The notes under the pieces: generated by a model | Database searches by the model: none | What the model saw: the letters and a program-made list of their open reading frames with translations, nothing else | What the model was told of the DNA's origin: nothing | Assembly (NCBI GenBank): GCA_046536775.1 | Contig: JAWDMD010000018.1 | Location: 1 to 9,184, forward strand | Source: Candidatus Nanopusillus sp. | GTDB taxonomy: Archaea > Nanobdellota > Nanobdellia > Nanobdellales > Nanobdellaceae | Direction of reading: 5' to 3' | Length of the DNA stretch: 9,184 nucleotides | Position numbers and translations under genes: made by a program | Shown here: positions 1 to 9,053 of the stretch, one piece after another | Position numbering within the stretch: position 1 is the first letter of the stretch | Layout of the letters: each line of letters begins with the position of its first letter

Positions 1-544
1 CCTCCCCCTCGAGCGCGCGGGCCCAGCCGGCGCCGGGGTCCTCGAACGCGTCCTTCCACACCAGCACGGGGCGCCCCAGGCGCAGGGCGGCCCGCGCCGC
101 GGCCGTCACACCGTCGCGGCCAGTCGAGCTCACCACTATCACCGCGTCCGCGAGGAGCGCGAGCAGCGAGTCGGCCGCCGCGACGTCCACCCTGTTGTCC
201 AGCGGGGGCGACGGCGAGAGCAGGAGCCCGTTCTCGCGCAGCGCCGCCCTCAGGAACGGGTCGTCCCCGGCGAGGTCCTGAACCGGCGACGGGGATATCC
301 CGACCGCGCTGAGCTCGCGGGCCGCCATCGCCACGTGCAGCGCGACGCGGTCGAGCGGGCGGAACGTGCACCCCGCGACCGCCGCCGGCGCCTCGGGGGA
401 CCCTATGACCGCCACAAGAGGCCGCGGCGCGGCCGGCCCGACCGGCCCCTCCCACCACACGATGCTAGGGGCCGCCTCGGCCTCCCTCCCGCTGGGCCTC
501 CTCCCGAGGAGGGCCTCTATCGAGACGGCGTGCACGGGCTCCAT
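1..544 (-). CDS. DprA/Smf-like (SLOG-fold) protein, divergent paralog; 3' end runs off the left edge of the window
   Basis: Absent from the ORF track (no stop in window). My translation of the minus strand from the ATG (complement of 542-544) gives 181 stop-free codons: MEPVHAVSIEALLGRRPSGREAEAAPSIVWWEGPVGPAAPRPLVAVIGSPEAP...AADSLLALLADAVIVVSSTGRDGVTAAARAALRLGRPVLVWKDAFEDPGAGWARALEGE. By eye it aligns with the DprA at 8181-9053: LLGR..SG.E..AP....EG....VAV[IV]G; [IL]AL[IL]ADAV[IV].V; AALRLGRP[LV].[IV]W..AF[DE]DP. It lacks the SGLARGIDTTAH core motif. A GGGGGGTGA Shine-Dalgarno-like run (549-557, minus strand) ends 4 nt before the ATG, and the start lies 4 nt after the stop of pilin A. Confidence 0.6.
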   Translation of the reverse strand, partial: MEPVHAVSIEALLGRRPSGREAEAAPSIVWWEGPVGPAAPRPLVAVIGSPEAPAAVAGCTFRPLDRVALHVAMAARELSAVGISPSPVQDLAGDDPFLRAALRENGLLLSPSPPLDNRVDVAAADSLLALLADAVIVVSSTGRDGVTAAARAALRLGRPVLVWKDAFEDPGAGWARALEGE

Positions 545-548
545 GCTC

Positions 549-1019
549 TCACCCCCCAGGTGTCAACGTGATCGCGGTCCCGGAACCGATGATCGTCACC
601 GAGAACGAGCTGGGCCACGCGCCCGTGTACGGCACGGTGTACGTCAGGACGGCCGGCGAGTCTGGCGGGATGGTGCTGGCGGCGTTCCCATCCACGCTCA
701 GCTGGAACTGCCCGCCCCCGAGCGTGTATGTGTTCCCCGCCACGTACGTCACCACCTCGCTCGGCGTGAAGGGGGAGGTTCCGTAGCTGTAGAGGTACAG
801 CGTCACCTGCGTGCCGCCGCTCACCGGGGTCGCGGTCCAGTAGGTCAGGCTGATGCCCACGCCGGCGGACTGCGCTGATTGTGAGACAGCGCTGGCCGCC
901 GACTGCGACGCCGCTTGGTAGCGGAGGTAGAGCGGGTAGACGGCGGCCGCGAAGACCACCATGACTATCGCGATCAGGATGATCGCGGAGAGCATCTCGG
1001 AGACGGCCGCGCGCCTCAC
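549..1019 (-). CDS. Archaeal type IV pilin-like protein (class III signal peptide), paralog A
   Basis: 156-aa ORF. The N-terminus MRRAAVSEMLSAIILIAIVMVVFAAAVY is a short basic leader followed by a hydrophobic helix of about 22 residues. The remainder is S/T/G/V-rich and beta-type. A CTTTTTAAGG TATA-like element (1039-1048) is centred 24.5 nt upstream of the ATG, which implies a leaderless transcript. Confidence 0.85.
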   Translation of the reverse strand: MRRAAVSEMLSAIILIAIVMVVFAAAVYPLYLRYQAASQSAASAVSQSAQSAGVGISLTYWTATPVSGGTQVTLYLYSYGTSPFTPSEVVTYVAGNTYTLGGGQFQLSVDGNAASTIPPDSPAVLTYTVPYTGAWPSSFSVTIIGSGTAITLTPGG

Positions 1020-1038
1020 ACAGGCGCGTGCCGTGGCG

Positions 1039-1048
1039 CTTTTTAAGG
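1039..1048 (-). promoter_or_regulatory. TATA-box-like element for pilin A, embedded in the inverted repeat GGCGCTTT(1035-1042)/AAAGCGCC(1057-1064)
   Basis: CTTTTTAAGG is an AT-rich decamer in GC-rich DNA. It sits at the same 24.5-25.5 nt spacing from a start codon as four other copies in the window. Confidence 0.6.
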
Positions 1049-1100
1049 CGCCCTTGAAAGCGCCGATTCAGTTCGGGACTCGCGGCTATTATGAGTAAGC

Positions 1101-2860: not shown

Positions 2861-2884
2861 CTTTTAAGGCGCCCTTTTAAGGCG
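2861..2884 (+). promoter_or_regulatory. Tandem TATA-like elements upstream of the ATPase gene
   Basis: CTTTTAAGGCG occurs twice (2861-2871 and 2874-2884). The second copy, as CCTTTTAAGG 2873-2882, is centred 24.5 nt upstream of GTG 2902. Confidence 0.6.
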
Positions 2885-2901
2885 GCGCGGCACGCGCGGC
2901 C

Positions 2902-5052
2902 GTGGAGAGGCTCTCGGACCGCGACCTCCTGGGGCACGCGATGGTGATAGGGGCCACCGGCTCGGGGAAGACCAACTTCCTGCTCTACACCATGCACCAC
3001 ATACACAAGAGCATGGACGCGGCCGTGATCTTCGTGGACCCCCATGGCCAGGCGTCGCTCGACCTCGCGCGTATGATACCGGAGACCCGGGTGTTCGACC
3101 CCACCTACTCGCCCTTCGGCCTCAACCCACTGGAGCTCGGGCCCTACTCCTCGAGGGAGGACCGCGCGCTCATGGTCCAGCTCCGCGTGGGCGAGCTCCT
3201 CAGGATAATGGAGGACCTATTCTCGGTGACCGTCGACCGCGCCCCGAGGCTCCTCTGGATCCTGCGCGGCGCGCTGCTCTACCTCTACACGCTCACCGAC
3301 ACCCCGACCTTCTTGGACCTCTACTACCTGCTCACGGACCTGATGGGCATGGACGAGGGGGAGGCGGCCGAGTTCCTGGAGGGCGCCGGGCTGGACGACG
3401 AGACCGTGAGGCGCACGCTGGAGGCGATATCGAAGCTGGAGAGCGCGGCATTCACGGCCGTGCTCAACAGGATCTCTAACTTCGTGCTCCCCCCGGGGTC
3501 GCTCACAGCGAAGACCTTCTGCAGCAGGCGCACGACCGTGCCGTTCGCGGAGCTCCTGAGGCCGGGCTCGATATCCGCGTTCCGCCTCCCGACGTATGCG
3601 CTCCCGGAAGACTTCCGCCGCGTCGCCACGTCGACAATAGTGATGGACGTCTACTTCGAGGTCCAGAGGCGCTTCCGCTCCCTGGAGCTGGGAGGGGGCG
3701 GGGTGTCCTCATTCTCCGGGGGGCCGGCGCCCGTCTACTTGGTGATAGACGAGTTCCAGAACGTGGCGGACCTGGACCTCCTGAAGACCATACTCGCGGA
3801 GGCGCGCAAGTTCGGCCTCTACCTGATCGTGGCGCACCAGAACATAGCGCAGGTGAGGGAGGACCTCTTCCAGAGCTTCGCGGGGAACGCCGCGCTCGTG
3901 GTCTCGTTCCGCGTTGGGCCGGACGACGCGCTCAAGATGAAGCAGGTGCTGAACGTCAAGGACCAGGCCGTCCTCACCTCACTCCCCAACTACACCGCGA
4001 TAGTGCGCAGGAACCCGGTCGGCGGCGGAATACTGACCTATTACATGCGGGTGCCGCGCGCCCCCGCGCCGGTCCTCCCGGAGGACGAGGTGCTCAAACG
4101 CCTGAGGGAGGCCCCGCCCACCGCGAACGAGGACCGCAGCATAGTCTACAGGCGCGCGATGGAGGGCGCCGCGGAGAGGTCCGGGAGGCCGCCGCTGACG
4201 CCGGCGCGCTGGGCGGTGCTGGCGGCCGTGCGCCTGGGCATGGCGACCACCTATAAGGCGCTGGTGGACCTCATGTACCACCGCTACGCGTGGGACGAGA
4301 GCGTGACCCTGTCCGCGATAAACTACCTGATGGACTCCGGCCTGCTGGTCGCGGCCGGGGCCAGCGCCGACACCGAGTACGAGGTGACCCGGGAGGCTGA
4401 GAGGTACTTCCACAGCGCGGTCGCGGGTCCCCGGGCCGGCGGGCCGGTGCACAACGCGATAGTCCGGAAGCTCCTGCACGACTACTGGGAGCGCGGCTAC
4501 TACTGCGAGGTGGACGACGGCTCGCCCGGCCCCGAGAAACCGGACATAGTGGTCTGGAGGCCGGTCACGCGCCGCGTCGAATCGAAGTTCCAGACCCGCG
4601 AGGAGCGCGACCCGGCGCGCTGGGACCCCGAGCCGGTGGCGATAGAGGTGGAGACGATGCTCGGGCGCAGGCGGCAGATACCGAGGAACTTGGAGAAGGT
4701 GAGGCGCTACCCGCGCGCCGCCTTCGTGACGGACTCGAACGCGCATAAGGAGAAGCTCAGGGCGATAATGCGGGAGGCCGGCATAGAGTATCCAATCGAG
4801 GTGGTGAACATCGGCATGGTCGAGCAGACACCGGCCGAGGAGGACCTTGACTCGTTCCTCGTCACCCTGGTGATCAACGGGTGGCCTGGCGAGGAAAAGG
4901 CCGCGGAGCTCGCCGGGGCGGACGTGGAGGACGTGAGGGAGCACTTGGAGGGCCTCATAGAGGCCGGTGTGATAAGGCGCCGCGAGGACGGGTCGCTCGA
5001 GGCGGTGGTGGAGGCCGAGGGCGGCGGCCCCGGATCCCGACCACGTGCGTAA
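2902..5052 (+). CDS. P-loop NTPase of the VirB4/VirD4(TraG)/HerA-FtsK class (AAA_10-like), fused to a winged-helix module, a PD-(D/E)xK-like module and a second winged-helix module
   Basis: Walker A GATGSGKT (2950-2973) begins at residue 17. FVDPHG follows. Walker B is VYLVIDEFQN (3733-3762). ARKFGLYLIVAHQNIAQV (about 3802-3855) resembles the TraG/VirD4 C-terminal RK.G..l..Q..sQl motif. Towards the C-terminus: a wHTH-like stretch (PLTPARWAVLAAVRLGMATTYKALVDLM...INYLMDSGLLV), a nuclease-like stretch (GGPVHNAIVRKLL...EKPDIVVW...PVAIEVET, about 4440-4810), and a terminal wHTH-like stretch (EDVREHLEGLIEAGVIRRREDGSLE). No TM segment is evident. Confidence 0.85.
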   Translation: MERLSDRDLLGHAMVIGATGSGKTNFLLYTMHHIHKSMDAAVIFVDPHGQASLDLARMIPETRVFDPTYSPFGLNPLELGPYSSREDRALMVQLRVGELLRIMEDLFSVTVDRAPRLLWILRGALLYLYTLTDTPTFLDLYYLLTDLMGMDEGEAAEFLEGAGLDDETVRRTLEAISKLESAAFTAVLNRISNFVLPPGSLTAKTFCSRRTTVPFAELLRPGSISAFRLPTYALPEDFRRVATSTIVMDVYFEVQRRFRSLELGGGGVSSFSGGPAPVYLVIDEFQNVADLDLLKTILAEARKFGLYLIVAHQNIAQVREDLFQSFAGNAALVVSFRVGPDDALKMKQVLNVKDQAVLTSLPNYTAIVRRNPVGGGILTYYMRVPRAPAPVLPEDEVLKRLREAPPTANEDRSIVYRRAMEGAAERSGRPPLTPARWAVLAAVRLGMATTYKALVDLMYHRYAWDESVTLSAINYLMDSGLLVAAGASADTEYEVTREAERYFHSAVAGPRAGGPVHNAIVRKLLHDYWERGYYCEVDDGSPGPEKPDIVVWRPVTRRVESKFQTREERDPARWDPEPVAIEVETMLGRRRQIPRNLEKVRRYPRAAFVTDSNAHKEKLRAIMREAGIEYPIEVVNIGMVEQTPAEEDLDSFLVTLVINGWPGEEKAAELAGADVEDVREHLEGLIEAGVIRRREDGSLEAVVEAEGGGPGSRPRA

Positions 5053-5093
5053 TATCAGTGCAAATATTACCGGCACGGATCAGCGCCCGTGCC
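5049..5093. other. Two hairpins in the convergent junction between the ATPase gene and pilin B
   Basis: Hairpin 1 is GTAATAT (5049-5055) with ATATTAC (5064-5070) and an 8-nt loop. Hairpin 2 is GGCACGG (5072-5078) with CCGTGCC (5087-5093) and an 8-nt loop. Hairpin 1 overlaps the ATPase stop and hairpin 2 overlaps the pilin B stop. There is no strong T-run. Confidence 0.3.
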
Positions 5094-5895
5094 CGCCGCC
5101 CTCGGCGACCGCGGCGTGGAGCACCGCGACCGCCGTGTTATTGGACGGGTTCTGGATCACCAGCTTCACCGTGTACTGGCCGGGGCCGAGCGCCCCCGTG
5201 ACGACATTGGAGATCGTCTGTCCCGGCGGGACGCCACCGTTGCCCGGGTACATGGCGCTCGTCAGGACGAGCGACCCGCTGGCGTTGTACACGCAAACGG
5301 TGATGGTCTTGAGGTTCGACCCGCCTGTGTTCTTCACGTTCACGGCGAAGCCGTTGCTGGCGGGGCCGATGCTGGCCTCGATTGATGGGGCGCTGCCCTG
5401 CACCGCGGCCGGGCCGCTGGCCCACACGTAATCGGAGCCGGTCGCCACCACCTCCAGCGGGATCGTCTGCACGACGCCGTTCGCGTACACCACCTGCAGC
5501 TCCACGGGGTAGGTGACGCCGGCCATCAGCGGGCCAAGGGCCTGCACGGGGTAGTTCGGGCCGATGTCGACGGCGCCGCCGGCGCTCTGGCCGGGCGCCA
5601 CGGCCCCGATCACCTTCACGGGGGACTGTTGCTCGACGCCGTCGAACATCATCAGGTCGACCTCGTCGATCGAGATGGTTCCGGGGTCCTTCACGGTGAC
5701 GGTGAGGACGCCCGGGCCGCCGCCTTGGGCGAGCAGGTCCACGTCCTGCACGTACACCGCCTGCGCGACGCTGCTCTGCATCATCACCTGGCGCGCGTAA
5801 CTGTAGAGGGTGACGCCGGCCGCGAGCGTGACCGCTATCAGGATCACGGTCGCTATTATCGGGGCGACTGCCCTCCTGCGGCCGGCCGCCATCAT
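5080..5895 (-). CDS. Archaeal type IV pilin-like protein, paralog B, with two tandem beta-sandwich-like repeats
   Basis: 271 aa. MMAAGRRRAVAPIIATVILIAVTLAAGVTLY carries the canonical archaeal pilin N-terminal motif ([RK]-A-[IV]-[SA]-P-I-I-A-T). Two repeats share V.VK[DN].G...PGQ[ST]...G..Y.V.L.V. The palindromic CCTTATAAGG element is centred 24.5 nt upstream. Confidence 0.9.
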   Translation of the reverse strand: MMAAGRRRAVAPIIATVILIAVTLAAGVTLYSYARQVMMQSSVAQAVYVQDVDLLAQGGGPGVLTVTVKDPGTISIDEVDLMMFDGVEQQSPVKVIGAVAPGQSAGGAVDIGPNYPVQALGPLMAGVTYPVELQVVYANGVVQTIPLEVVATGSDYVWASGPAAVQGSAPSIEASIGPASNGFAVNVKNTGGSNLKTITVCVYNASGSLVLTSAMYPGNGGVPPGQTISNVVTGALGPGQYTVKLVIQNPSNNTAVAVLHAAVAEGGGHGR

Positions 5896-5914
5896 ATCAG
5901 AATTGTTTGGGGCG

Positions 5915-5924
5915 CCTTATAAGG
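5915..5924 (-). promoter_or_regulatory. TATA-box-like element for pilin B
   Basis: CCTTATAAGG is a perfect palindrome centred 24.5 nt from ATG 5895. Confidence 0.6.
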
Positions 5925-5965
5925 GGGCGGGCGCACAGTCCCAGCTCCGCTTTCCTCAGGAACTG

Positions 5966-7020: not shown

Positions 7021-7653
7021 TCACCTCCCGCGCTGGCCCGCCGCCTCCAAGAGGGTTGCCCCCGCGCCGGCCCTCGGCCTCACGGTCACGCGCATCGTGC
7101 GCACGGCCTCGTCCCCGACCATCACGACCAGCTCGTGCTCCCCAATGGGCCAGTCGCCCGGCGTGAACACGAGCCTGTATCTGGAGTTCGATGGCCCCAC
7201 GGTCGCGGCGGCCGCCTCCTGCCCGTCCACCAGCAGGCGAACCTTCACTGGTCCCTGGGCCTTGACCTCGCCCTCTATGACGAGCGGCACGGTCGAATCG
7301 GCGTAGAGATCCGTCGGGGGCTCCGGCTCGGCGCGCGCGGGCCCCGGCGCGGCCCCGGGCGCAGTGGGGGGCGGCTGAACCGGGCGCGGGCCCCTGTGGG
7401 TCAGCGCGTACCACAGGATGAGCTCCATCGGGACAGAGCGGACGGGGAGGCTCGCGTAGGCGACCCCGAGCAGGATCACGAACATGAAGGCGGCGAACTG
7501 CGCCAGCATCCCCGCGCCGCTCAGCGCGGCCGCCAGCCCGGCGCCCACCGCGGCCGAGAGCGCGAATATAACGATCTGGCGCGGGCTGGCGGTGAACCCG
7601 AAGATGGGGACCGACCTCTCCTCCCACCGCGAGCGCTTGGGCCACCAGGCCAT
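7021..7653 (-). CDS. Two-TM membrane protein with a PrgI/VirB3-like N-terminus, a Pro/Ala-rich linker and a C-terminal beta-rich domain
   Basis: 210 aa. EERSVPIFGFTASPRQIVIFALSAAVGAGLAAAL resembles the PrgI-family signature as I recall it (short leader, f-G-[LF]-T-x-R-Q, then a TM segment). A second TM follows (AQFAAFMFVILLGVAYA), then SVPMELILWY, a linker (PRPVQPPPTAPGAAPGPARAEPEPP) and a beta-rich tail (PVKVRLLVDGQ...YRLVFTPGDWPIGEHELVVMVGDEAVRTMRVTVRP). The shared TATA element is 25.5 nt upstream. Confidence 0.55.
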   Translation of the reverse strand: MAWWPKRSRWEERSVPIFGFTASPRQIVIFALSAAVGAGLAAALSGAGMLAQFAAFMFVILLGVAYASLPVRSVPMELILWYALTHRGPRPVQPPPTAPGAAPGPARAEPEPPTDLYADSTVPLVIEGEVKAQGPVKVRLLVDGQEAAAATVGPSNSRYRLVFTPGDWPIGEHELVVMVGDEAVRTMRVTVRPRAGAGATLLEAAGQRGR

Positions 7654-7673
7654 CGCTCACGCGTGCCGCGGCG

Positions 7674-7683
7674 CCTTTTAAGG
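7674..7683. promoter_or_regulatory. Single shared TATA-like element for two divergent leaderless genes
   Basis: CCTTTTAAGG is centred at 7678.5. The minus-strand ATG (7653) and the plus-strand ATG (7704) are each exactly 25.5 nt from that centre. The intergenic region is only 50 nt long. Confidence 0.65.
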
Positions 7684-7703
7684 GACTGAAATACGAGCCC
7701 CCG

Positions 7704-8153
7704 ATGAGCGCCGTTATCCACGGGCACGGCCCCCTGAGCAGGAGGAAGGCAATCTCCGAGATGCTCGCCGTGATAATACTGCTCTCGCTCACGATAGTCG
7801 CCGGCGTGCTGGTCTACCAGATATTCACGGGGAAGGCCAACGTCGCGTCCAGCGCGACGGCGGTGTCGATCCAGAGCCTCACGATCTCGGGCGAGAATGG
7901 CGTAATGACCATCACGGTGCAGAACACGGGCACAAGTACAATACAATCCCTCCAAGTTAAGGTCTACCAGAGCGGCGGCGCCGCGGTGAACGTGAATGGT
8001 CAGTTCTCACCGCCGAGCATCGCGCCCGGGCAGACCACCTCCGGCACGTTCACCGGGACATTCTCGCCAGGCGAGCAGTACACGGTCGTGGTCACGGCGA
8101 CGGCCGCCGGCGGCAGCACGACCACGGCGACGGCGACCGTAACCGCGTCCTGA
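7704..8153 (+). CDS. Archaeal type IV pilin-like protein, paralog E
   Basis: 149 aa. ...GPLSRRKAISEMLAVIILLSLTIVAGVLVY is a class III signal-type N-terminus with the same SEML motif as paralog A. It also has ITVQNTGTS...APGQTTSG...SPGEQYTVVVTAT and a T/A/G-rich tail. Confidence 0.9.
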   Translation: MSAVIHGHGPLSRRKAISEMLAVIILLSLTIVAGVLVYQIFTGKANVASSATAVSIQSLTISGENGVMTITVQNTGTSTIQSLQVKVYQSGGAAVNVNGQFSPPSIAPGQTTSGTFTGTFSPGEQYTVVVTATAAGGSTTTATATVTAS

Positions 8154-8176
8154 GCTCGGGGGCGGCAACCAGATAT

Positions 8177-8198
8177 CTTTTTATTTAATTTTTATTAT
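8177..8198 (+). terminator. Oligo-T terminator candidate for pilin E, overlapping the 3' end of dprA on the opposite strand
   Basis: CTTTTTATTTAATTTTTATTAT contains T5, T3 and T5 runs and starts 24 nt after the stop at 8151-8153. It is the most AT-rich patch in the window. Confidence 0.5.
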
Positions 8199-9053
8199 AG
8201 AGTCGACCGAGCCCTCGTCCAGCCTCCTCGCGCCGCGCCCCGCCATCTCCCGGGGCCACGCGAGGTTCGGGTCGTCGAACGCGCCCCTCCAGATCCAGAG
8301 GGGCCTCCCCAGCCGCAGCGCCGCCAACCCCGTGAAGGCGGTCCCGCCGGCCGGGCCCGCCTCCACTAAGACCACGGCGTCCGCTATCAGCGCGATCGTG
8401 CGGTCGCGCGCCAGGAAGTCCCGCGGCCGCGTCGCGTGCCCGGGCGGGAACTGGCTGACCGCCAAATGTTTCCTCATTATCTCGAGCTGGAGCTCCCGGT
8501 TCTCGGGAGGGTAGAACCTGTCAAGTGGGGTCCCCAAGACGGCGATGGTTCTCCCACTGCGCTCGATCGCGGCCCGGTGCGCCGTGGTATCTATACCGCG
8601 CGCGAGCCCGCTCACAATTACGGCGCCCCGCTCCGCGAGCCTCCCAGCGATCAGCCGGGCCGCGCCCAGCCCGGCCGGCGAGGGCCGCCTGGTGCCGACC
8701 ACCGCGACGCGCGGCCCCCCGAGCGGGATCTCCAGCGCGCCCTCGACGTAGAGCTCGCGTGGCGCGTACGCGCGCTCGGCGCCGCTCAGCCCGCGCCCGA
8801 GGAGTTGCTCGGGGGTGACGGCCCTCGTCCCTCCCGCCCCCCTCGGCGCGGCGCGCAGGGCGCGGGTAGCCTCAGCTCGGGGTACTTGGCCGCGAGGCCC
8901 CTCAGAACCCCGAGCGCCCGGCGCGCGTCCCCCTCGGTGGCCCAAGGCTTCCTCTCCAGGAGGATCTCCAGCCCCTCCTCCGCGGTGAACTCCGGGAAGC
9001 GCGCGTTGTACTCGCAGAACATCACGAGCGTCGCGGCGAGCTCCAGCGTCCAT
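8181..9053 (-). CDS. dprA: DprA/Smf DNA-processing protein (Rossmann-like DprA domain); the true start is uncertain
   Basis: PRVAVVGTRRPSPAGLGAARLIAGRLAERGAVIVSGLARGIDTTAHRAAIERSGRTIAVLGTPLDRFYPPENRELQLEIM...SQFPPGHATRPRDFLARDRTIALIADAVVLVEAGPAGGTAFTGLAALRLGRPLWIW matches the DprA signature: VGsR, SG[LM]A.GID..AH, iAVlG.GlD..YP..N, F..RNRiia.l.dav.vvEa. The N-terminal portion of about 75 aa from ATG 9053 is R/G/A/P-rich, looks non-coding, and overlaps the upstream ORF. The only other canonical in-frame start I found before the domain is TTG at 8945. Confidence 0.85.
   Translation of the reverse strand: MDAGARRDARDVLRVQRALPGVHRGGGAGDPPGEEALGHRGGRAPGARGSEGPRGQVPRAEATRALRAAPRGAGGTRAVTPEQLLGRGLSGAERAYAPRELYVEGALEIPLGGPRVAVVGTRRPSPAGLGAARLIAGRLAERGAVIVSGLARGIDTTAHRAAIERSGRTIAVLGTPLDRFYPPENRELQLEIMRKHLAVSQFPPGHATRPRDFLARDRTIALIADAVVLVEAGPAGGTAFTGLAALRLGRPLWIWRGAFDDPNLAWPREMAGRGARRLDEGSVDSIIKIK

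Follow-up and report, generated by a model that had tools for sequence, protein, structure and literature searches.

In contig JAWDMD010000018.1, the 9,184 nucleotides (nt) of which make up the whole stretch analysed here ("the window"), an open reading frame (ORF) that runs off the left edge lies directly behind a gene for an archaeal type IV pilin-like protein (pilin A, gene pilA) and encodes a relative of DprA. The question that this locus raises is why a DprA-like gene should be joined to a pilin gene, and what such a protein would do there. We refer to the edge ORF, a paralogue of the short archaeal DprA, as dprA2, and to the canonical copy at the other end of the window as dprA1. The earlier note on this DNA had described the edge gene as a diverged, possibly regulatory or adaptor, SLOG-fold protein, and had stated that it knew of no described genetic coupling between a pilin gene and a DprA-like gene; we have found none in the searched literature either, where archaeal DprA in connection with pilins, Ced or Thaumarchaeota occurs in annotation remarks only (DprA-ComF of Thermoproteus tenax, dprA of Aigarchaeota). 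Archaeal DNA uptake and the handover of DNA to recombination are poorly understood, and the literature that we searched holds no functional study of an archaeal DprA. The reading that we favour, at a probability of about 0.45, is that dprA2 would be a DprA derivative that no longer binds DNA, is co-expressed with the pilin and acts through protein contacts.

Our analysis is concerned first with the relationship of dprA2 to DprA. The minus-strand frame is open from the ATG at position 544 to the end of the contig, over 181 codons, and the 3' end of the gene lies beyond the window, which explains, as the earlier note had supposed, why an ORF list misses it. Comparison with dprA1 by BLASTP has revealed 30% identity over the whole length (~200 columns, E-value 2e-16), in agreement with the relatedness that had been claimed. 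The window copy scores 26.8 bits against PF02481, where the gathering cut-off is 29.6 bits, while two intact orthologues (our P0002, 222 amino acids, and P0004, 224 amino acids; intact orthologues measure 222-224 amino acids) score 37.0 and 40.8 bits, i.e. above the cut-off; against TIGR00732, dprA2 scores 32.6 bits and dprA1 141.2 bits, the cut-off of 191.15 being reached by neither. The AlphaFold2 model of P0002, calculated from an alignment of 39 sequences, has a predicted local distance difference test score (pLDDT) of 92.2 and a predicted template modelling score (pTM) of 0.90, and its best Foldseek matches in the PDB are the DprA proteins of Helicobacter pylori and Streptococcus pneumoniae (template modelling score, TM, 0.74-0.78), followed by ShosA (TM 0.66) and then by Moco-carrier proteins (MCP) and LOG (TM 0.45-0.58). 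Profile scores and model thus agree with the proposal of a second, diverged DprA/SLOG-fold protein: on the predicted structure, dprA2 is a diverged DprA-type Rossmann/SLOG-fold paralogue, the intact copies of which keep the fold.

With bacterial DprA/Smf (PDB IDs: 3UQZ, 4LJK/4LJR, 3MAJ), dprA2 has the Rossmann/SLOG fold in common, with homology along the whole Rossmann domain, but like all short archaeal DprA proteins it has neither a SAM domain nor a C-terminal winged-helix domain. With the short archaeal DprA proteins of Nitrososphaeria, Caldarchaeales and Thermoproteus, it shares the length class of ~212-230 amino acids and the N-terminal motif LLGRxLxxxExxxAP. It differs from both groups in its signature motifs. 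All short archaeal DprA proteins, dprA1 included, keep GS/TR, SGLAxGID..AH, GTPL and YPxxN, as well as VSQFPPG, FxxRDR, VEAxxxSGT and EALRLGRP, where dprA2 has GSP, AGCTFRPLD, ISPSPV, LAGDD, LSPSPP, VAAADS and VNSTGRDGA; compared with the bacterial proteins, GSR, SGxAxGID, GTPL, YPxxN, FxxRDR and ExxxSGT are all replaced. Four of the replacements can be paired, i.e. GSR with GSP, SGLAxGID with AGCTFRPLD, FxxRDR with VAAADS and VEAxxxSGT with VNSTGRDGA. The region that corresponds to SGLAxGID..AH reads AGCTFRPLDRVALH, where only the aspartate and the histidine are retained; at the site of GS/TR, every dprA2 copy has GSP(E), and FLARDR is replaced by VAAADS.

Some of these replacements fall on residues that handle single-stranded DNA (ssDNA) in other DprA proteins. 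In H. pylori DprA, the ssDNA-contacting arginines are R52, R143 and R170, the first two of which correspond to R139 and R234 of ShosA, each of them essential there (PMC12961424); the arginine of the G-S/T-R motif (R52 in H. pylori, R115 in S. pneumoniae) contacts ssDNA (PMC12961424, PMC4066776). The three H. pylori arginines map to P50, A141 and R168 of P0002, which has therefore lost the two essential arginines and kept the third. On this ground dprA2 would no longer bind ssDNA in the manner of DprA. The C-terminal block of dprA2 is the part most like dprA1, with 17 of 31 residues (55%) the same, compared with 35% overall. It aligns to residues 247-277 of S. pneumoniae DprA, a zone that holds dimerisation and RecA-contact residues (PMC4066776), so that a counterpart of the bacterial contact block is retained. 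We have considered, and set aside, the possibility that gene conversion has recently homogenised this block of dprA1 and dprA2: the third-position identity (0.55-0.70) is not clearly above the expectation at ~75% GC. As an observation apart, two short DprA-like proteins of the representative library carry partly degraded motifs, GSSRPT/SGLATDVE in P0016 and GPRRPS/SGLSEGLH in P0017, and motif-degraded DprA paralogues may have arisen repeatedly.

Alternatively, the remodelled region could form a new pocket, with dprA2 a SLOG protein that binds a small molecule or nucleotide and signals to the pilus system. The SLOG superfamily includes ligand binders, the MCP and LOG structures appear among the Foldseek matches, and the loops AGCTFRPLD, SPSPP and NSTGRDGA are invariant within the dprA2 family. 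The glycine-rich motifs of the LOG type (PGGxGTxxE-type loops) are absent, however, the DprA structures match the model far better than LOG or MCP do, and no ligand-related partner gene has been found; we regard this alternative as remote.

The second part of our analysis is concerned with the junction between pilA and dprA2. The ATG of dprA2 lies 4 nt after the pilin stop codon and is preceded by a Shine-Dalgarno-like (SD-like) sequence, just as the earlier note had described (Table 1), and the arrangement of pilin stop, 4-nt spacer and ATG is kept in all 12 loci that cover the junction; variants of the SD-like sequence, GGGGGCTGA and GGGGGATGA, occur in the sister loci L010 and L016. A TATA-like box is located 24-32 nt upstream of the start of pilA, of the further pilin genes pil271, pil167 and pil149, of the gene for a HerA/VirD4-like ATPase and of the gene for a PrgI-like membrane protein, while inspection of the upstream sequences of dprA2 and of pil157 has shown no such box of their own. 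The claim that the other pilin genes all have their own TATA element therefore holds for pilA, pil271, pil167 and pil149, and fails for pil157. Because of the short spacer, the SD-like sequence, the missing TATA-like box and the conservation of the junction, dprA2 is very probably co-expressed with pilin A, as had been proposed; the gene would be translated from the pilin A transcript. In this respect dprA2, placed in a probable pilin transcription unit, differs from the canonical short archaeal genes, which stand alone or with a gene for a ComF-like phosphoribosyltransferase (PRTase), as in the DprA-ComF operon noted in T. tenax in 2011 (PMC3189178).

The expression of the unit appears to be linked with that of its surroundings. 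The motif GGCGCC-YTWWWA-RG (GGCGCCYTWWWARGS) has seven matches at four intergenic sites of the window, where 0.04 are expected, and a longer identity, CCTTTTAAGGCGSCGCGGCACGCG, is common to the promoter of the ATPase gene and the promoter of the PrgI-like gene and pil149. This recurrence suggests that one regulator acts on both the pilA-dprA2 unit and the other genes of the cluster; the promoter repeats may also serve as substrates for rearrangements from strain to strain.

Taken in sequence, the mechanism that we propose would be the following: dprA2, made whenever the pilus genes are expressed, would work through protein contacts, and since its C-terminal block is the part most like dprA1, it could pair with dprA1 or bind RadA; it would thereby modulate recombination-mediator activity at the times of pilus gene expression. 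The regulatory or adaptor role that the earlier note had suggested would be plausible. Under this reading, dprA2 would be a natural separation-of-function variant, showing which surfaces of DprA serve protein-protein contacts, and it could show whether archaeal pili and recombination mediators are co-regulated. In any case, dprA2 is a variant of a known protein family with a narrow distribution, not a new system.

Several points weigh against the mechanism. The putative partner-binding role is drawn from a regional sequence similarity. The SD-like sequence lies inside the pilin coding sequence and could be conserved on that account rather than for a role in translation. Canonical DprA proteins dominate the alignment behind the AlphaFold2 model and have in part shaped the predicted fold of P0002. 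The dprA2 copies are all close kin (dS ~0.1-0.25), which makes their invariance weak evidence. One copy in three is broken and the sister locus L006 is without the gene, which fits a gene that is being lost. Finally, the normal start of dprA1 is gone in this contig, where the proposed partner may not be made. We therefore regard dprA2 as a lead rather than a result, coming from one narrow uncultured clade in which the gene is often broken and, in the window, damaged.

The extent of the damage across the clade has been assessed in 12 distinct dprA2 loci, the window included, which we have collected by a metagenome scan and exact look-ups; the protein has seven close homologues. Four of the 12 loci carry lesions, i.e. 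a 51-nt deletion in the window, frameshifts of 11 nt in L002/L016 and of 2 nt in L013, and a 446-nt deletion in L018; the lesion-free copies, six full-length and one partial, retain start codon, spacer and full frame. Among the six intact copies, the Nei-Gojobori dN/dS ratio is 0.17-0.39, and the bootstrap confidence interval of the most divergent pair (0.18-0.52) excludes 1; the values are similar to those of the neighbouring genes (0.06-0.33 for pilin A, 0.09-0.43 for the downstream gene orf186). By region, the substituted middle part has a ratio of 0.27, the N-terminal part 0.38 and the C-terminal part 0.31. The strongest constraint is thus found in the middle region, as would be expected of a new sequence that is being conserved and not of drift. 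On these ratios the dprA2 family is under purifying selection, functional in the clade and yet dispensable, since four of the 12 natural copies are broken. The early stop or frameshift that the earlier note had named as fatal to its proposal thus does occur in some sister copies, while the family as a whole has escaped it.

The same data bear on a different explanation, namely that dprA2 is a redundant duplicate decaying to a pseudogene, with an incidental adjacency to the pilin gene and a constraint left over from recent function. All of the DprA signature motifs are lost, four independent lesions are found in the 12 loci, the gene is missing from L006 and from Conexivisphaera calida, and it is confined to one narrow clade, all of which such a decay would produce. 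It would not be expected to leave dN/dS ratios of this kind, to make the substituted motif region the most conserved part of the protein, to preserve start codon, spacer and frame in the lesion-free copies, or to yield a confident fold prediction for an intact copy; we consider decay unlikely, though by no means negligible.

The narrowness of the clade is apparent from a HMMER pass over 1.84 billion representatives, where dprA2 forms a single cluster at 50% identity plus fragments, compared with canonical copies that number in the thousands; the next matches after this cluster are canonical short DprA proteins of 28-35% identity. P0002 is most similar to the dprA1 proteins from its own clade (35-36% identity), the values falling to 24-30% in more distant archaeal DprA proteins, and for this reason the data fit an origin of dprA2 as a lineage-specific duplicate of a short archaeal DprA, which consists of the Rossmann domain only. 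Exact-product look-ups with three proteins of the window have given no match, and a scan of the contigs of GTDB species representatives has returned no relative of P0002 or of the ATPase; in IMG/VR, the ATPase has no match, and the DprA profile finds distant viral DprA-like proteins only (21-30% identity). Named homologues of dprA1 come from a Nitrososphaeria archaeon (89%), Conexivisphaera, Caldarchaeum and Nitrosotenuis, and by the homologues of dprA1 and pilin A, the host appears to be a high-GC organism near Conexivisphaerales (class Nitrososphaeria).

In the window copy of dprA2, the lesion is of particular relevance, as it had been taken for a property of the family. The earlier note had estimated by eye that about 35 residues, including the SGLARGID..AH motif and the following strand, are lacking, and had read the gap as a mark of divergence; the missing segment in fact comprises 17-18 residues, located before the motif, the region of which is still there in substituted form, and it is damage specific to the allele in this contig. 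Alignment of the window with L001/L002/L003 and L009-L018 shows that 51 nt (PAVAAASWAARSLVMRG, encoding 17 amino acids) are absent from the window and present in all 11 other loci that cover the position. The lost segment is the whole of helix 53-68 of the P0002 model, the first Rossmann helix, situated between strands 43-48 and 72-76, and ~5 residues are left to join the two parallel strands; for these reasons a normal fold is improbable for the window allele, which is probably non-functional. AlphaFold2 is an unreliable judge of destabilising deletions. Intact dprA2 contains two copies of an 8-nt direct repeat, GCGCCGCC, which are located at nt 153 and nt 599 (L001, 4910-5578). In L018 (1254-1500), the out-of-frame deletion of 446 nt lies exactly between the two repeats, and the window deletion begins at the left one; since both deletions start there, the left repeat is, on these alignments, a deletion hotspot.

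The canonical copy of the window has also been altered. Judged by the starts of its orthologues, dprA1 occupies 8181-8819 and not 8181-9053, as the earlier note had it: the orthologue P0110, 92% identical, starts with VTPEELL, and the orthologues begin at a GTG codon, which is present in L017 (1-260) and L032 (355-560), while the corresponding codon of the window (8819-8817) is GTC. The nearest in-frame starts, TTG at 8945 and ATG at 9053, are both located within the frame of orf130. Upstream of dprA1, L032 and L017 have ~330 nt with a small gene similar to orf192 that are missing from the window; in L017 (2-464), dprA1 comes directly after this orf192-like gene. On both contigs that reach far enough, i.e. 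the window and L017, dprA1 accompanies dprA2.

This contig appears to carry two impaired DprA-family genes, unless the deletion and the GTC codon are errors of assembly or consensus and the organism carries intact genes. Both lesions are unique to this contig, and the region, with ~77% GC, is rich in short GC repeats, as would suit such errors; the deletion, on the other hand, is exactly in frame and starts at the very repeat that bounds the independent deletion of L018, and the sister contigs, which come from other samples, carry different lesions, real variation being common here. We consider assembly errors rather improbable.

Table 1. Positions, in the window, of the DprA-family genes, the pilA-dprA2 junction and the shared promoter motif.
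Feature	Position	Strand	Description	Basis
dprA2	2..544	minus	5' 181 codons, ATG at 544, runs off contig end	translation
Deletion junction	385..386	minus	51 nt in frame, 17 amino acids, orthologue residues 54-70	DNA alignments
Spacer GAGC, 4 nt	545..548	minus	pilin A TGA (549-551) to dprA2 ATG	sequence
SD-like GGGGGGTGA	549..557	minus	overlaps last pilin codons and TGA	sequence
Pilin A (pilA)	549..1019	minus	GTG start at 1019, archaeal type IV pilin-like	weak profile matches, shared N-terminal motif
Promoter motif	1035..1061		divergent pilA/orf144 region; TATA-like TTAAAAA flanked by GGCGCC	
Promoter motif	2868..2886		upstream of HerA/VirD4-like ATPase gene	
Promoter motif	5911..5925		upstream of pilin gene 5080-5895	
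Promoter motif	7670..7684		divergent region, PrgI-like gene 7021-7653 / pilin gene 7704-8153	
dprA1	8181..8819	minus	canonical short archaeal DprA, 212 amino acids in orthologues	PF02481, 161.9 bits

Comparison of the window with its sister loci places the pilA-dprA2 unit in a variable neighbourhood. The locus L006 (JGI 3300017696, Ga0187310_15884) shares with the window pilA (89%), orf144, orf192, the PIN gene (92%) and the ATPase gene (94%), and has no dprA2; in its stead, a canonical DprA (P0118, 71% identical to dprA1) and a PRTase lie beside pilA at 3078-4591 in the opposite orientation, the stop of the former overlapping the start of the latter, a 276-residue protein that matches ShosT (55 bits) and ComF (28.6 bits). 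L011 (1301-3968) and L012 (1-967) lack the orf144-orf192-PIN block. L010 (1333-2754) has a TnpB gene (IS605 OrfB) behind dprA2, and a TnpB insertion is also present in L006. In the cultured relative Conexivisphaera calida (AP018732.1, 598724-619206; our L033), a syntenic pilin locus is found with homologues of orf121 (83% identity), orf446 (42%), orf186 (35%), pilin A (55%) and pil149 (65%) and with a TFB gene, where orf186 and the pilin A homologue follow each other directly; genes for a DprA-like protein, the ATPase or PIN are absent within 10 kb of it. Since the syntenic locus lacks a DprA-like gene, the coupling of pilA and dprA2 is, by this comparison, a derived trait of the clade to which the window belongs. 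The DprA genes, the ATPase and the PIN gene would behave as accessory cassettes inserted in a chromosomal pilin locus, because the gene order is mosaic between strains and these genes are absent in C. calida.

A neighbourhood of this kind also invites the explanation that dprA2 is part of a defence island, derived from an antitoxin or sensor of the ShosA/PsyrA type in a slot for variable toxin-antitoxin or defence genes. The L006 slot beside pilA, with its canonical DprA and its ShosT- and ComF-matching PRTase, is suggestive in this regard, as are the PIN gene, the HerA-like ATPase with its PADLOC mad8 match, the TnpB insertions, the mosaic order and the absence of the cassette genes from C. 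calida; P0002 weakly matches ShosA and PsyrA, and its fold is of the same DprA type as that of ShosA (the ShosTA antitoxin; PDB IDs: 8ZVA, 9VZO). The PRTase in L006, however, stands beside a canonical DprA and not beside dprA2, and no PRTase or helicase toxin adjoins dprA2 in the window or in any of the 11 sister loci. The 222-residue dprA2 starts at the Rossmann domain, without the SAM domain of ShosA, and has lost the equivalents of R139 and R234, arginines without which ShosA does not act as an antitoxin. The PADLOC ShosA match of P0002 (28.5 bits) is confined to the C-terminal third, and the PADLOC model fails to distinguish ShosA from genuine DprA proteins. A ShosTA identity suggested by the ShosA scores of dprA1 and P0118 (214-231 bits) has been rejected for the same reason, given that a fragment of pneumococcal DprA scores 198 bits. 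A defence origin of dprA2 is, in our view, distinctly improbable.

A more far-reaching proposal would be that dprA2 is a neofunctionalised adaptor with the DprA fold, produced along with pilin A, that links the type IV pilus physically or by regulation to dprA1/RadA, and that the cluster (five pilins, the HerA/VirD4-like ATPase, the PrgI-like membrane protein, two DprA genes and the shared promoter motif) is an undescribed pilus-dependent DNA-uptake system of Nitrososphaeria. The Ups pili and the Ced import system of Sulfolobales provide the theme of pili tied to DNA exchange; the pilins of the window match the UpsA and UpsB models, and the best NCBIfam match of the ATPase is CedB. The scores are far below the cut-offs, though (42.8 against 130 for UpsA; 36 against 700 for CedB, in the P-loop region only), and neither a CedA-like membrane protein nor a pilus assembly ATPase nor a platform protein is encoded in the window. 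Among the Ced-related papers, PMC9905601 has no occurrence of DprA and PMC6668835 has one mention, which concerns bacteria. We hold this proposal to be very unlikely.

The pilin assignment of pilA has been made from a putative class III signal peptide recognised by eye, MRRAAVSE/MLSAIILIAIVMVVF, which resembles RRKAISP/IIATIILI of the other pilins of the window; the profile scores are weak (UpsB 19.6 against a cut-off of 70, Arch_flagellin 18.5 against 29.5, and Pilin_N also weak).

Among the remaining genes of the cluster, the PIN gene (2234-2827) precedes the ATPase gene (2902-5052, plus strand, 716 amino acids), whose product has its Walker A motif at residues 17-24 and no membrane N-domain, and whose matches to the TrwB, TraG, HerA and CedB models are limited to the surroundings of the P-loop and Walker B motifs; it also matches PADLOC mad8 (46.6 bits); in its C-terminal third, winged-helix matches and a PD-(D/E)xK-like pattern, "PDIVVW...AIEVET", are discernible by eye. 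The PrgI-like gene (7021-7653, minus strand) encodes a membrane protein of 210 amino acids with a weak PrgI/VirB3-like match of 19.5 bits, below the cut-off, and is followed by three pilin-like genes in the same orientation. In a more distant relative with 41% GC (L004, 10001-17742; JGI 3300005958), a distance of 3-7 kb separates a canonical DprA gene (62% identical) from a platform gene of the T2SSF type and from three pilin genes homologous to pil167 and pil149; because of this proximity, a loose linkage of DprA with type IV pilus loci appears to extend beyond the window's clade. Scans of the window with Rfam and for tRNA genes have given no matches. Between the convergent genes pil149 and dprA1, a 29-nt stretch of nearly pure A/T, ATATCTTTTTATTTAATTTTTATTATAGA, is located at 8173-8201, in a contig that otherwise has 65-75% GC; it is probably a bidirectional terminator.

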